Source: Candidatus Heimdallarchaeota archaeon (GTDB lineage: Archaea; Asgardarchaeota; Heimdallarchaeia; JABLTI01). From it: 50,351 bases of DNA. The position numbers and the translations under genes were made by a program. The notes under the pieces are model-generated. The model was not told the DNA's origin. It did no database searches and saw only the letters and a list, made by a program, of their open reading frames with translations. Below, in pieces: positions 7,056 to 50,351 of this stretch (the stretch's first letter is position 1; every line of letters starts with the position of its first letter). The stretch is taken from positions 1 through 50,351 of the forward strand of contig JAHLVW010000105.1 in NCBI GenBank assembly GCA_019058275.1, read 5' to 3'.

Positions 7056-9092
7056 TTAAGATTCGCTTGTTTCATGCTCAATTAAGAGCCTTAAATTAAT
7101 GATTTCCTTATCAATATCTCTTTCAAATCGTTCAATTTGGTTTTGATAATCTTTAAGGATTTTGAGATAAGCATCTTTTGAAATCTGTTTCTCTCGGATG
7201 TATCTGACTCTTAGTTCTTGGGTGCTTCGTTCTATGCTTGATCGTTTTTCTTCGGTGATTTCTATTTTCTGAATAGAGTCGGAATATTTCTTACCTTTTT
7301 CTTTAAGATTTCTTTTTATTGTATCAAGATTTTTGATTAATTCACGCATCTTGCTTTCTAGAATCTTCCTTTGATAATCATATTCCTTAGCTTTAATTTT
7401 CTTCTTCCTTCGCTTTAGATCGAGTTCAGAAATTCGTAATTGCAAAGCAGTTTTTTCTTCATATGATTCAACGAATTTTTGGATTAATTCAATTGGAACT
7501 TCTTCTCGAGATTCAGGAGTTATGAGGATTTTTTCTATTATATCCTTTCTCAATATTCTTAATCCAACATAACACAAACAAGCAATGAAAATAATTAATG
7601 CAAATATAAGTGGTTGAATAAAGTAGGATAAATCATTCATGGTATAACTTGCGCTTATTTGCAAATTATCATATCTTGTAATATTTACCATAGAGAGGGA
7701 TACAGTTTGTCTTCGTCCGATATTTAAAAATACACCTGTGTACCCAGTTATATATTCAGTTGGTTGGTTGCCAAATGTTAGGTATTGGAATCTTGCACCT
7801 TGTGGGAAAACAATATCTAAATCGAAATTCGCTACATGGAAGTCGACCTTAGGTAAGCCCAGAGTTTTCAGAACATATTCGGTTTTTTCATACTCAAGTA
7901 CTTCTTCTAGTTTCAATTTGTAATCAATAGTAAAGCTCTTGATTTCTCCACCGATAATGGGTCCTCGTAGAAAGATATTGATACGATTAAGCTGAGCTAT
8001 CTCTGATCCCTGTTTTGGTACTAATTTTCCTAGTTCATCGTAAACAACAACGTCTTGAGCATTATCAATGTAAAGATGCAACTCTTGCATAGCAAACGAT
8101 ATCCAAATTTCTTTTTTGAGTAAATCCCATAGCATACTATCAGGACTAACTCCTAAGCATTGCATAGTAATTTCTTCACGAATATGAGCATAATACCAAT
8201 TATCTAAGGTGATTGTTCGTTTGTAGCTTATTGCTTCTGCTGGTGGACTTTTTGTTAAAAAGCAACCTATTTGGGCATAGTATTTGTAATTACGATCATT
8301 TGGATCATGAGATGTTGAGAAGTTAAATGCAGGAATATCATATAAATCTCCGAAAATCACTGATGCAGTCTCTACTGTTGCATTTACTGGATAAACAAAT
8401 TCAGTAAGGATATTTCCTTCCTCTGGAGTATTGAATGCTGTTCTACACATAGCTATATCATGAGAAATTAATGGTACTTGACTGAAATTAAAAGCAATGC
8501 CATTTACCATGATGTTTGTAATTTCTCCTTCCATATAAACCCACTCAAAAATTGAATAAGGTCTAAGGAATGTTGCTTGAACATTTATTTTATAATCAGA
8601 ACTGTTCTCAAGTGCTGGGATCAAATTCATAGCATAAAATGAATAGTATTCTGTGTCATATTCTTTGAATACTTCAGTATCATTTAGTGGAACATCTTCT
8701 GCATCATACATTGATTTGCCTTTGATACTAACTAAATTGATACCCCAGCTTTTTGGATAAGCAAATCGGAATATAGGCAATGTAATATTATCATTTTTAT
8801 TGATAACATAGGTATCATTTATTGTTAAATAACCAAATTCATGCAATTTAACTGCACGAGTTACATTTATATCAAGATCCCATAATGATAAGTTTGGATA
8901 ATCGGATCCTGCACTATTGGGCACAAATGGACTGGTGTCCCCAATATTTGTTTCTTCCACATAAGACGGAAGAATTGTATCATTTTCTATTTGATTATTC
9001 ATAATACCGTTTACTTGAAACAAAGTAATCATGTTCAATGTAATTATTGCTAGTGCAAAAACTAACAACACTTTGTTTTTCCGACCTGACAT
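7056..9092 (-). CDS. Ribophorin I (oligosaccharyltransferase RPN1/OST1) homologue
   Basis: Signal peptide; two beta-sandwich repeats (VTRAVKLHEFG..I.DTY and YKRTITLDNW...REEI); LRGPIIGGEIKSFTIDY matching the RPN1 RxPLxGGWxxxFxxGY motif; single TM; cytosolic helical bundle. Confidence 0.75.
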   Translation of the reverse strand: MSGRKNKVLLVFALAIITLNMITLFQVNGIMNNQIENDTILPSYVEETNIGDTSPFVPNSAGSDYPNLSLWDLDINVTRAVKLHEFGYLTINDTYVINKNDNITLPIFRFAYPKSWGINLVSIKGKSMYDAEDVPLNDTEVFKEYDTEYYSFYAMNLIPALENSSDYKINVQATFLRPYSIFEWVYMEGEITNIMVNGIAFNFSQVPLISHDIAMCRTAFNTPEEGNILTEFVYPVNATVETASVIFGDLYDIPAFNFSTSHDPNDRNYKYYAQIGCFLTKSPPAEAISYKRTITLDNWYYAHIREEITMQCLGVSPDSMLWDLLKKEIWISFAMQELHLYIDNAQDVVVYDELGKLVPKQGSEIAQLNRINIFLRGPIIGGEIKSFTIDYKLKLEEVLEYEKTEYVLKTLGLPKVDFHVANFDLDIVFPQGARFQYLTFGNQPTEYITGYTGVFLNIGRRQTVSLSMVNITRYDNLQISASYTMNDLSYFIQPLIFALIIFIACLCYVGLRILRKDIIEKILITPESREEVPIELIQKFVESYEEKTALQLRISELDLKRRKKKIKAKEYDYQRKILESKMRELIKNLDTIKRNLKEKGKKYSDSIQKIEITEEKRSSIERSTQELRVRYIREKQISKDAYLKILKDYQNQIERFERDIDKEIINLRLLIEHETSES

Positions 9093-12588: not shown

Positions 12589-13887
12589 CTAATCCAAGCC
12601 TTTACTGATTCCAAGTTCATCCCAGAATTCTGATGTTTTCTCTTTTTGTATTATTTTCTCTGGAGTTTCTTTCCGTTCTTTTGTAGTTTCTTTCAATTTT
12701 CTTCGCAAGTCTCTTAGATTTGGTTTTGTATCTTTCCTCAACCAATTCTCTTTTTCTCTCTGTGGTCTAATTTGTCCTATTGTACTTTGACCAGCGACAA
12801 CATCATATGGAGGTGTTAAATATGTTGCTGGTCTTTTATGCATACTCATTATTTGCTCGCTTTCAACTCCAGAGATAACGATTATTATTCGAAGAACATC
12901 ACCCAATTCATGGTCTACTTTTGTTCCCCAGATTACTTCTGCATCAGGTTGAATCTTTTCTCGTATTATCTCCACAACACTACTTGCTTCCTTCAAAGAC
13001 ATTGTAGATCCACCTGTTACATGTATTAGTGCAGCGTTTCCCAAGTTGTAGTTGATATTCACCAATGGGTTCTCGAGTGCTTTTTGGACTGCTTTTACTG
13101 CTCTATCTTCACCCTGTGCTTCGCCTACTCCACAAACAGTTACACCACCTTTGGCTATAATTGACTTAAGATCTGCAAAATCAACATTGATTAAACCGGG
13201 TTGTGAAACTGTTGAGATAATTGAATAAATATAGTTAGCAAGAACTTCATCTGCTACGCTAAATGCTTCTTCTATTGGTAAGTCTGGAACAAGCTCCAAA
13301 AGCATATCATTTTCAATTATCACAACTGTATCAGAATTCTTCTGCAAAGTATCTAGACCTGTAAAAGCCTTTTCTTTTCGAGACCCTTCAATACTAAAAG
13401 GAATTGTTACCACACTAATTACAATTGCTCCGGCATTCTTTGCAATTTCAGCAATGATAGGCATTGCTCCTGTACCTGTTCCCCCGCCTAAGCCACAGGT
13501 TAAGAAAATAATATCTGCATCCGAGATGGTTCTTTGTATGTCAGAATAAGATTCTTCGGCTGCTGCCTTGCCTAACTCTGGTTTTCCTCCACTGCCTAAC
13601 CCACGAGTAGTTTTCTTTCCAATTAGCAAGGTTGAGTCACATTTTACTGATTCTAAATGTTGAAGGTCTGTATTTATACAAATGCAGAAAGCGTCTTTAA
13701 TTCCTGTTGACATTAGTCTGTTTATGGTGTTATTTCCCCCACCACCAACACCGATAACATAGCAGTTTGTTTTTCCGAGTGGTTTCTTTACTGGTTTGTG
13801 CATTGGTTTTCTTTGTTGTTTGCTTACGTAATCTCTTAATGCTGATTTTTCATTAGCATACTTATTGTTTAATACAGATCTTTCCAA
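12589..13887 (-). CDS. ftsZ: Cell division GTPase FtsZ
   Basis: GVGGGGNN, NTDLQHL, GLGGGTGTG signature, PFSIEG, T7 loop GLINVDFAD. Confidence 0.97.
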   Translation of the reverse strand: MERSVLNNKYANEKSALRDYVSKQQRKPMHKPVKKPLGKTNCYVIGVGGGGNNTINRLMSTGIKDAFCICINTDLQHLESVKCDSTLLIGKKTTRGLGSGGKPELGKAAAEESYSDIQRTISDADIIFLTCGLGGGTGTGAMPIIAEIAKNAGAIVISVVTIPFSIEGSRKEKAFTGLDTLQKNSDTVVIIENDMLLELVPDLPIEEAFSVADEVLANYIYSIISTVSQPGLINVDFADLKSIIAKGGVTVCGVGEAQGEDRAVKAVQKALENPLVNINYNLGNAALIHVTGGSTMSLKEASSVVEIIREKIQPDAEVIWGTKVDHELGDVLRIIIVISGVESEQIMSMHKRPATYLTPPYDVVAGQSTIGQIRPQREKENWLRKDTKPNLRDLRRKLKETTKERKETPEKIIQKEKTSEFWDELGISKGLD

Positions 13888-47367: not shown

Positions 47368-47720
47368 ATGGCAGAAATAACAACTATAGAAGAATCTAGT
47401 AAGTATAATTTTGGAAAGTTTCTGATAGCATTAGCTCTTGTTATATTTGCTTATGCTGTAGCAATTGGAGCAGCTTTTGGTATTGGTTATGGATTAACCA
47501 TTTAGCTTGGTACCCACTGTGGATTACCTTAGTAGCCGATGTTGGTGCTACATTAGTAATTTTCATTTTCAGTGTTATTTTCAATAATGTTAGTTTTTAT
47601 GATCCATACTGGAGTATTCAACCCATTGTAATTGCTGTATATTGGATGTTCCTCCCCCAAGCAGCAAGTGCAAATCCTATAAGACAGATGATTATTATTG
47701 GTTGTGTCGCCTTTTGGGGT
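47368..47720 (+). pseudogene. DUF1295 (steroid 5-alpha reductase-like) membrane protein, frameshifted and truncated
   Basis: Fragments in different frames: ...ADVGATLVIFIFSVIFNNVSFYDPYWSIQP...FWG; homology stops at the GGGG tract at 47716-47719. Confidence 0.8.
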
Positions 47721-47756
47721 CGCAACTGTTGCCCTAAAATATGGACAAATAGGACA
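47716..47756 (+). repeat. 41-bp imperfect direct repeat, copy 1 (putative IS607-type element end)
   Basis: GGGGT-CGCA-ACTGTTGC-N7-TATGGACAA-A-TAGGACA; GGACA motifs 9 bp apart. Confidence 0.75.
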
Positions 47757-47870
47757 TCATAGGTTTTAGGTGGGCAAGGGTAATATGCTAAGGGAATTAT
47801 TGAGAAAGACTAACTAGTAAGAAGGGTTTCATTAGCTGGCATGAAATTATCAGAGTGGGCACAACAAAAA

Positions 47871-47911
47871 GGGGTTGTGACTGTTGCTGTTTTTTATGGA
47901 CAATTAGGGCA
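47871..47911 (+). repeat. 41-bp imperfect direct repeat, copy 2
   Basis: GGGGT-TGTG-ACTGTTGC-N7-TATGGACAA-T-TAGGGCA; GGACA/GGGCA motifs 9 bp apart. Confidence 0.75.
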
Positions 47912-48107: not shown

Positions 48108-50351
48108 TTATTTTCGTATTTTCTTTTCATCTTTTACATAATTCTTCAACCTCAAAGTGTCCATGGTTTCTGTGGGAGTTATAACCAAAACACACTTCTG
48201 GTCATATCTTTTCCCTTTCTTTGTCCAGTGACCTAATCCATAGACTCTCTCTTTTTCGTTATAGAATCGTTTATGAAAGTGCCCAATTACCAGATGAGTT
48301 TCTTGAGTAATCTTTTTTGGCAACCTACTGCGACCATCACTAATTAGTTTCCTTTTTGCGATTATTGTTGCCCCCTCCTCATTTGTTCGCTTCACTTCTT
48401 TTGGATCTATTCCAATCTTATTGCCATGGACAATCAGCACTTCTCCTGCAGCTGTTTCTAGCCATGCATAGTCTTGCTGTAGGATATTAGCAAAATATGC
48501 CAACGTAGCATCATGGATGGTCGAGCTTCTTATTAGCACCAGCTTCGACCAAAAACCTTCACTGATAGCTACTTGCAATAATTTCTTTACTGATTCTTCA
48601 CCTGCCTTACCTTCCTTATCCAACAAATCACCATTAATGATCACAATATCTGCTTGAGCACTTAGATCACTCAATGCTTCAAAGAATTCTTTTTCAAAGC
48701 TATACTCACCTCCAAGGTGTATATCTGATAATGCAACGATTTTTCCTTCACAATAATTTGGTTGTATAGTTATTTGCTCTTCGAGTTGTTCGTACCAATC
48801 AGTTTCTGCTAGCTTCTCCAAATCTTGCGCTAAAAGCACCAATTTCTCTTTAGAGCCTTGAGGGAATTCACCTATTAATTCCCCGTAGCATTTCTTACAG
48901 CCCTCTGCACATGAGCAATCCACTAATCTCTTTCTCAATTGTTCTACCACTTCTTTCAAATGCTTGTAGAGATAGCCAGCATTTCCTTTTCCTCTCCCCT
49001 TATCATATAATGCTAATTGCTTGTTGTTGCTTATTAGCCCTAGCTCTGTTGAAGGTACTCCTAGCACCACCTCAGTTTCAATCAGGAGCAATCTTCCAAA
49101 CAATTTTAGCATTCCTTTATTCGTTCTCCCTTTTGCTTTCAGTGATTCTATCCTCAAATCAAGAATTATTCCTTCGACTCTCTCTCTGATGCTATATTCT
49201 TGGGCTTCGTCTTCGGTTAATTCCTGCCAGCAGTAGCCACCTGCTTCTTCGTTGCTTGTTTCTAAAATCCTCCTTTTTGGGTTGGCATTGACTATTGCTT
49301 TTGGTCTGCGTTCAATATTAAGCTGTCCAAAATGAATGTTAACAAGCGCAGGTCCTTGTGAGACTTTTGGTAAAATTCCCATTGAGATGCTCGGGTCAGA
49401 CAAGCTATTGAAAGGCAATTTAGTGAATTCCTCCCCTTTAGCTAGATGCTTCTTAACCAGAACACTTCTTTCGCTATGGTCAATGTCCACTACTAGATAC
49501 TTCTGCCTATTTCGAGTCAGAATGTTCCCAGGCAAGCCTTTCCTCAAAACATCTCTTGTAGCTATTTTCCCAACAAGCATCCCCTCAGCTTGACTTGTTG
49601 TATCATATCTCAGCAGCTGGTTGATCGTCCAGCCTCTATCGATGGCTCGTATAGAGAGTGGCACTAACCCTTTCTTTTCCGAGAGGAGTTCTTCACCATG
49701 ACTAGTGAATAGCAGTTTACCACTATCCTTTTTCAAGATCATTTGAGTGACTAAACGTGCATATTGCTGTCGAGCTAGCTCATGAGCGACTGTTCCTTCC
49801 TTGAGAAAGAAAGTCATAATATCTCGAAAGTCAGTAATTCCATAACGCAACAACAAAATCAGTAATCCAGCGAAAACCTTGGCGTTCCTCTTTGGATAGA
49901 GGATAGGGTTACAAGCATTTGTCTCGAGAATCTTTTGAAGTATTTCCTTGTGCTCCCAATAAAATCTATCTCGAGCATTTCCTAAATCGAAGATGAAGGT
50001 ATTTACTCTTCGCTCTCCTGGCTTGGAGCGATTCCGAGCCATCCTTTGGACGATACCATCTTTCTGAGTGATAGGAATGCCGATGTTAATGACAGTCTGG
50101 ATGTTTTGGATGTTCACTCCCAACTCAAGAACAGATGAGGAGATCACTATTCGGATAATGTTTTGCTCTCCCTTTTGCAGTTCATCCAAGACTTTTTTTC
50201 TGTGCATGTAAGGCATGTCTGCATGGATAACTACCACTGTTTGTTCATCAAAGAATTCGTTCTTTTGTTTGAGAGCAAAACATAACAGTTCGGCAAGCAA
50301 TTCAATGTCCTCTTTTGAATCAGCAAAGACAAGGCAGGCTCTCCCAGGTAT
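48108..50351 (-). CDS. YprA/Hrq1-like SF2 helicase (C-terminal RecA domain) + DUF1998 Zn domain + C-terminal metallophosphoesterase; 5'-partial
   Basis: Frame open to the window edge (IPGRACLVFADSKEDIE, motif IV); SSSVLELGVNI (V); QRMARNR (degenerate VI); LYD...GNAG...CSCAEGCKKC (DUF1998); SDIHLG, NGDLLD, HD, VHG, GHFH (MPP). Confidence 0.82.
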   Translation of the reverse strand: MPGRACLVFADSKEDIELLAELLCFALKQKNEFFDEQTVVVIHADMPYMHRKKVLDELQKGEQNIIRIVISSSVLELGVNIQNIQTVINIGIPITQKDGIVQRMARNRSKPGERRVNTFIFDLGNARDRFYWEHKEILQKILETNACNPILYPKRNAKVFAGLLILLLRYGITDFRDIMTFFLKEGTVAHELARQQYARLVTQMILKKDSGKLLFTSHGEELLSEKKGLVPLSIRAIDRGWTINQLLRYDTTSQAEGMLVGKIATRDVLRKGLPGNILTRNRQKYLVVDIDHSERSVLVKKHLAKGEEFTKLPFNSLSDPSISMGILPKVSQGPALVNIHFGQLNIERRPKAIVNANPKRRILETSNEEAGGYCWQELTEDEAQEYSIRERVEGIILDLRIESLKAKGRTNKGMLKLFGRLLLIETEVVLGVPSTELGLISNNKQLALYDKGRGKGNAGYLYKHLKEVVEQLRKRLVDCSCAEGCKKCYGELIGEFPQGSKEKLVLLAQDLEKLAETDWYEQLEEQITIQPNYCEGKIVALSDIHLGGEYSFEKEFFEALSDLSAQADIVIINGDLLDKEGKAGEESVKKLLQVAISEGFWSKLVLIRSSTIHDATLAYFANILQQDYAWLETAAGEVLIVHGNKIGIDPKEVKRTNEEGATIIAKRKLISDGRSRLPKKITQETHLVIGHFHKRFYNEKERVYGLGHWTKKGKRYDQKCVLVITPTETMDTLRLKNYVKDEKKIRK

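Follow-up and report, generated by a model that had tools for sequence, protein, structure and literature searches.

Near one end of a contig from a Candidatus Heimdallarchaeota archaeon, two related 41-bp repeats each coincide with the truncated end of a gene, which raises the question of what kind of mobile DNA they delimit, in which order the two breaks arose and which enzyme made them. The preliminary description of this DNA had proposed nested ends of the IS607 type, i.e. that one IS607-type element had inserted into a host gene and that a second element with a related end had then inserted into its tnpA. The window analysed here (50,351 nt) is the whole contig C101 of an assembly, G000, that comprises 4.12 Mb in 118 contigs and is 93% complete. 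The features on which the following argument relies are listed below, with LE and RE denoting left and right end, respectively.

47368 to 47720, plus strand: 5' fragment (pseudogene) of a gene for a DUF1295 membrane protein (Pfam PF06966), ending ...FWG, as aligned to the intact orthologue of G004 (317-aa frame)
47716 to 47756, plus strand: LE1, the outer left end (repeat copy 1) and boundary of the composite; the same boundary stands beside a different flank in G004:C104, and an inverted copy lies at the RE on C27
47716 to 47720, no strand assigned: exchange site GGGGT, of which GGT alone recurs at both junctions (right junction, C27 7363-7361) and in the empty site
47740 to 47757, plus strand: two tandem 9-bp units of LE1, TATGGACAA and ATAGGACAT; the 17-mer recurs at the left end belonging to the intact tnpA copy on C117 and at the RE on C27
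47757 to 47840, plus strand: leader from LE1 to the tnpA start codon, which aligns with the LE-to-tnpA regions of C117 and C11
47841 to 47875, plus strand: stub of an IS607-family tnpA, 11 codons (MKLSEWAQQKG) plus GT, broken at GGGG; near-identical to the tnpA start of C11 until GGGGT and divergent thereafter
47871 to 47911, plus strand: LE2, the inner left end (repeat copy 2), i.e. the left end of a tnpA-less cargo element; the DNA downstream is collinear with the C50 paralogue and with the elements G010:C17 and G008:C9
47990 to 48184, plus strand: 64-aa open reading frame with a strong ribosome-binding site and no Pfam match, just inside LE2 and overlapping the convergent helicase gene at its 3' end; possibly not a true gene
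48108 to 50351, minus strand: 3' part (747 codons) of a cargo gene for a DEAD/DEAH helicase with an MrfA Zn-binding domain and a calcineurin-like phosphoesterase (Pfam), which continues on C27

The repeats themselves are real. A repeat search of the window returns exactly these two 41-nt copies, which are 73% identical and lie 155 bp apart from start to start, and the degenerate pattern by which they had originally been described matches, with up to three mismatches allowed, at these two places only in the window and not once in 100 dinucleotide shuffles. The GG(A/G)CA words reported at 9-bp spacing are likewise present, two per copy (47743 and 47752 in copy 1, 47898 and 47907 in copy 2). Hereby, each left end consists of an outer-edge GG, a short spacer, the conserved box AAC-N-GTTGC, a second spacer (A/T) and the pair of tandem 9-bp units, and both the box and the units reappear in inverted orientation at the right end, directly after tnpB. 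The two tandem units occur in each end and are kept across copies and genomes, making them candidate TnpA sites; by analogy, those of LE1 are presumed to be the motifs bound by the HTH domain of TnpA. The possibility that the 41-mers represent conserved coding sequence, considered on account of the similar peptides encoded by both, was dropped, since copies are also found in non-coding and unrelated contexts.

To establish what the outer repeat interrupts, we compared the locus with the sister genome G004, which is 95-97% identical here and in which the DUF1295 gene is uninterrupted and reads ...FWG VRL.... Homology of this empty site to the window stops at 47720 and homology to contig C27 begins at 7363, the overlap being GGT only, so that copy 1 indeed sits at the break of the DUF1295 gene as had been claimed. 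In line with this, positions 2-51 of PF06966 match window 47562-47720, while positions 50-235 match C27 from 7366 down to 6824 on the minus strand. The distal DUF1295 part, which had been expected beyond the window, is thus present on C27, directly after tnpB and the inverted motif that forms the right end. These alignments indicate a precise insertion at GG(T) with no duplication beyond GG(T), where the absence of duplication has to be read with the limit that sequence cannot separate a conservative GG exchange from a 2-bp duplication at GG targets. A second empty site was obtained for the tnpA-less element G010:C17, which, compared to G000:C33, represents a GG^T insertion in the last codons of a gene, again with no duplication. 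For the MITE on G010:C3 no empty site was found, only a tRNA-like segment of its flank having matches elsewhere.

Two further observations concern the flanks of these insertions. Relative to G004, the DUF1295 5' fragment carries a 1-nt deletion in a T run (47495-47505, near 47500) that creates a TAG stop at 47503-47505; either post-insertion decay or an assembly error could account for it. At G010:C17, a 12-bp word to the left of the element (~1690-1706) is found again, inverted, ~25 bp to the right of the element (~12900-12915), and may represent a hairpin of the target rather than a part of the element.

The inserted DNA amounts to ~11,424 bp and has a G+C content of 38-39%, compared to 32.5% for the genome. 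Contigs C101 and C27, by sequence comparison, adjoin, because the C50 paralogue is collinear across the gap and a single G004 contig spans the join (4-bp overlap). From left to right the insert consists of LE1, an 84-bp leader, 11 tnpA codons, LE2, the helicase-phosphoesterase gene (minus strand), a gene for a 1367-aa Cas1-like fusion protein (minus), a WhiA-like gene (minus), tnpB (plus) and the RE. The N-terminal 306 aa of the helicase-phosphoesterase are encoded at the end of C27, which beyond the helicase encodes the 1367-aa protein, a 540-aa LAGLIDADG+HTH (WhiA-like) protein and, divergently, a TnpB of 543 aa. The latter scores 70.6 bits against PF07282 (cut-off 26.3) and 93 bits against NF040570, slightly below the cut-off of 100; its gene ends 37 bp before the right junction, and the inverted motif lies inside these 37 bp. 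Neither a tnpA remainder before tnpB nor a second right end was found on C27, and an Rfam search of the tnpB 3'/RE region and the window junction region returned no family at E up to 1. With tnpA reduced to 11 codons, the window element lacks its own transposase gene and is therefore non-autonomous.

The portion from LE2 to the RE corresponds to a complete tnpA-less element type known elsewhere in these genomes, with the order LE, helicase (minus), Cas1-like (minus), WhiA-like (minus), tnpB (plus) and RE. A paralogue is located on C50, and complete 11.1-kb units that start with the same kind of end are found at G010:C17 and G008:C9. Rather than a small IS, the second element of the preliminary description represents an 11.3-kb tnpA-less cargo element. 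That LE2 is instead an internal site brought in by inversion was considered and rejected, since complete tnpA-less elements elsewhere start with the same end. A second element type (C11, C17 and part of C117) contains tnpA, two extra genes (one Rad51-like) and the same set of cargo genes in opposite orientation. Homologues of the 312-aa and Rad51-like genes of this tnpA-bearing type run off the other end of C27 (136-1253), and a further element therefore lies just ~5 kb from the DUF1295 remainder. Among the cargo genes, the WhiA-like LAGLIDADG+HTH gene is far commoner in G000 than the Cas1-like or helicase genes, with >25 homologues on >20 contigs (tblastn), often head to head with tnpB.

The assignment of the repeats to the IS607 type, as initially suggested, is corroborated by the genes that follow them in other copies. 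The left-end motif is located 75-90 bp upstream of tnpA on C117 and C11 (on C117 ~85 bp before an intact 189-aa gene), and it is likewise found in compact IS607s of other Heimdall genera. The C117 TnpA reaches 186 bits (cut-off 110) against NF033518, the NCBIfam IS607 transposase model, across model positions 2-187; among PDB entries it is best matched by the TnpA of IS1535 (E 4e-37). G000 contains one intact tnpA (C117), one frameshifted tnpA (C11) and no others. In the C11 copy (76118-76671), part of a 13-kb element that otherwise looks complete, the frame is lost at a T run after ~30 codons, which may represent a genuine frameshift or a mistake in the assembly. With 53-58% identity, the nearest homologues of TnpA belong to Cas1-free, compact tnpA-tnpB IS607s of other Heimdall genera; the left ends of those elements have the same G tract as well as a comparable box and two comparable 9-bp units directly adjoining the start codon.

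According to the literature, ends of the IS607 family are characterized by GG at the termini and in the target, a preference for (G)GG and the lack of a target duplication (PMC6188088, PMC4058570). In place of a true terminal inverted repeat, they possess a subterminal one that is imperfect and whose two halves lie at different distances from the element ends, and the sites of IS1535 TnpA are helically phased 9-bp direct repeats (PMC6188088). Judged from the alignments, the end architecture described here is that of the published IS607 ends, with every sequence-level item of Chen et al. found in it. As in IS607, IS1535 and ISC1926, termini and target are GG, the inverted repeat is subterminal and imperfect, and duplication is absent; moreover, two 9-bp repeats are present at the RE as in IS1535, tnpB stands beside the RE and, in sister copies, a tnpA with an N-terminal HTH and a serine catalytic domain is placed next to the left end. 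Unlike these family members, which measure ~2 kb (compact ones ~1.7-2.5 kb, with tnpA and tnpB only), the present element measures 11.4 kb and carries four large cargo genes. It further differs in that the window copy has 11 tnpA codons only and two tandem left ends, in that each end has two clear 9-bp units compared to four to five in the left end of IS1535, and in that all right junctions seen read T after the exchange GG.

A genome-wide search for the 41-mer, which had been proposed as a check, shows that the window copies belong to a larger set. G000 contains about 11-12 similar left ends, all of which face element DNA and nearly all of which are preceded by GG, along with eight right-end copies that all end in GG then T, beyond which no similarity is left between the flanks. 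An identical 17-mer and the AAC-N-GTT box are shared by the core of the LE and the inverted core of the RE, whereas the GG is placed differently: at the LE it lies ~8 nt to the outside of the box, at the RE within it. The 17-mer core is present in 25 copies in G008, 7 in G010, 4 in G004 and 12 in G017, a member of another family, compared to 0-2 per genome for a reversed control pattern. The GG rule also holds in G008, for no fewer than 11 left and no fewer than 9 right ends whose flanks are distinct. Among GTDB species representatives, the RE 22-mer is restricted to Candidatus Heimdallarchaeota MAGs (same-genus genomes) apart from one match in a Bacillota MAG, which we discarded as chance-like given that no homologous genes are nearby.

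Short derivatives and isolated ends were also encountered. Two nearly identical MITEs of ~350 bp in G000 (C117 ~50577-50933 and C45 ~13189-13545) consist of an LE, the last tnpB codons and an RE; the C117 MITE has AG, not GG, at its left junction (~50933). G008 shows a recent burst of near-identical ~300-bp MITEs with these ends, which break the assembly at many contig ends. On C89 (~73638-73678, minus strand) a solo left end is located 35 bp downstream of a tRNA gene, and within the stretch looked at the usual element genes are absent from the DNA behind it. The Aloposons of Heimdallarchaeum, with their giant Otus/Ephialtes genes and integration at tRNAs, are unrelated.

Taken together, we regard it as likely that both repeats represent left ends within a single lineage of IS607-family-type transposons, and that the composite formed by joining at GG and then moved as a unit. 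In such a history, the LE of a tnpA-less element would have been joined by GG exchange to the GGGG of tnpA codon 11 of an IS607-type element. The outer LE1 and the RE of the inner element would then have been used as a pair of ends, and the composite would have moved as a unit into GG sites including the one in DUF1295. The catalyst would be an IS607-family serine transposase acting in trans (an intact copy is present on C117) that binds the 9-bp units and exchanges strands at GG; within this overall reading, TnpA in trans is the probable mover, a part we hold with less assurance. The guide of TnpB would derive from the DNA that directly flanks the RE on its outer side (DUF1295 sequence in this case), and TnpB would cut unoccupied alleles, an activity that has been published for TnpB.

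IS607 TnpA and the Cas1-like protein both come into question as the enzyme that moves these elements. It is unlikely, in our estimate, that the ends are used by the element's own aCas1, with the IS607 TnpA being dispensable or ancestral and the doubled left end a relic of a transposase change; several observations nevertheless speak for this explanation. aCas1 has been put forward as a transposase for related Asgard loci (PMC10691335). When the C-terminal part of the 1367-aa protein was modelled (mean pLDDT 66), the top Foldseek matches were all Cas1 or casposase structures (4n06, E 5e-7; 6opm), and an E, an H and D residues are invariant in six paralogues, while searches against Pfam, NCBIfam and PDB, with the single sequence and with a six-sequence profile, detected no Cas1 in this protein. 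Moreover, the elements without tnpA occur as complete and conserved units. Of the ten other genomes of the genus, eight have several copies of the Cas1-like gene, and G008 has the MITE burst; in none of these ten genomes (MAGs 64-90% complete) was an IS607 TnpA or resolvase domain found. A supply of TnpA in trans is hence conjectural for the other genomes, because they lack a detectable serine recombinase and yet most of them harbor elements and, in G008, the MITE burst. This absence is in turn weak evidence, because the genomes are MAGs of 64-90% completeness and multicopy or extrachromosomal DNA is frequently missing from MAGs. Against a role of aCas1 stands that known integration by Cas1 or casposase leaves long duplications, whereas the two independent empty sites found here show none beyond GG. 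The GG rule, the subterminal inverted repeat and the 9-bp units constitute the signature of IS607 TnpA, and the same motifs are present upstream of tnpA in compact, Cas1-free IS607s. As read from the aligned junctions, this signature argues for a serine transposase and against Cas1-type integration, and it does so for the tnpA-less G010:C17 as well.

A variant of this explanation, which we consider improbable, retains the IS607-like exchange and replaces the enzyme. Here, tnpA-less Cas1/TnpB elements and MITEs of this Heimdall genus would spread by GG-specific, duplication-free exchange in cells that have no serine recombinase. The IS607 ends would have been taken over by a cargo protein, be it the Cas1-like fusion or the WhiA-like HTH protein in concert with a partner nuclease, and the tandem left ends around the tnpA stub would be the fossil of this hand-over.

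Returning to the two left ends of an IS607-type lineage, the inner break can be traced as closely as the outer one. The 155 bp between the copies correspond to the leader plus 11 codons and are near-identical to the tnpA start of C11, the similarity stopping at the GGGGT of copy 2. Copy 2 had been placed at the truncation of a TnpA-like start, and the 11 codons from 47841 do match C11 almost base for base before the two diverge. With that, the assertion that both breaks fall at G tracts is confirmed. In G004, contig C104 carries the same composite of LE1, stub, LE2 and cargo, 97-99% identical, next to an unrelated left flank that ends in a G run. We infer from this comparison that the composite existed before one of the two insertions and moves as a unit with LE1 as its left boundary. 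The nesting would predate the DUF1295 insertion because the same composite is found at another site in G004, where DUF1295 is intact; this order of events is based on two genomes and on a G004 composite whose right end is not connected to its left end (C104). In terms of the alignments, LE1 is therewith marked as the functional boundary of the composite element. Thus, the nested insertion as first proposed is upheld in that both breaks lie at GG tracts and are of the IS607 type, but not in its order: the nesting probably came first, no distal tnpA remainder is present and there is one right end only.

The originally proposed order could be rescued by assuming that an IS607 element inserted into DUF1295, that the second element inserted in situ into its tnpA, and that the tnpA remainder, tnpB and one RE were later lost by a precise deletion between REs or by recombination between tnpB genes. 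Such a course would leave junctions at both G tracts as well as a single right end, just as found, and directly repeated right ends or tnpB genes could allow the deletion. It needs three events, however, one of them a precise deletion, and the identical composite junction at another G004 locus with intact DUF1295 demands at least one movement as a unit in any case; we therefore deem it very unlikely. That the repeats are a dispersed host repeat or the attachment site of an integrase island, overlapping the gene breaks by accident, is extremely unlikely. The C89 copy 35 bp after a tRNA gene speaks for it; against it, copies always face inwards to element genes and have an inverted partner at a distance of 0.35 or 11 kb, similarity between flanks ends precisely at the GG, the empty sites are exact, a tyrosine integrase is not involved and shuffles give no matches.

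The joint itself appears to fall at a particular site. A MITE on G004:C70 consists of an LE and 11 tnpA codons and is broken at the same GGGG. Because this independent derivative is broken there too, the GGGG in codon 11 of tnpA seems to be prone to exchange. Breakage at codon 11 may be a consequence of TnpA acting near its own left end. In having one element inside another and in using the outer end together with the far end of the inner element, the composite resembles nested or composite transposons of other IS families, and the short gene-less derivatives that retain both ends (~350 bp here) resemble the MITEs of such families. It differs from known nested and composite transposons in that both left ends point in the same direction and in that the joint lies at a specific GGGG of the transposase gene, which recurs in an independent MITE.

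Elements of this kind have already been published. Asgard aCas1-TnpB loci (Cas1H-Asgard-1/-2) were described with aCas1 as the suggested transposase and with no empty sites given, and a serine-recombinase-linked TnpB (Ser-3) with helicase and WhiA/meganuclease-like cargo was mentioned (PMC10691335). The present element shares with these loci the Asgard host, the flanking repeats, a cargo of helicase and WhiA-like genes and the proximity of a giant Cas1-like protein to a large TnpB; it differs in that its ends and two empty sites carry the exchange signature of IS607. The word GTTCACTCA, reported as conserved and as bounding a hypervariable stretch downstream of tnpB (PMC10691335), is absent from the 200 bp after the tnpB stop on C27. 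Casposons are similar insofar as a Cas1-fold protein resides inside a mobile element with inverted repeats. Compared to these, the 14-15-bp target duplication is lacking here, the inverted repeats are subterminal and insertion is GG-specific; no PolB is among the genes annotated in the insert. While the kind of element is thus known (PMC10691335), the doubled left end (recognized as LE, tnpA stub and LE), the shared RE, the unit-wise movement and the recurrent break at codon 11 are particular to the present case.

In conclusion, the exact boundaries, the target (GG then T) and the empty site are now fixed for a large Asgard Cas1/TnpB element, and these junctions bear directly on the published proposal that aCas1 moves such elements (PMC10691335). 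The doubled left end, unchanged at two loci in two genomes, shows how transposase-less cargo can be joined to an IS607 end and subsequently travel with it. Breakage of the GGGG of tnpA codon 11 in two independent derivatives suggests a built-in weak point at which autonomous elements become non-autonomous. LE1, LE2 and the RE constitute defined substrates on which TnpA can be tested against aCas1.
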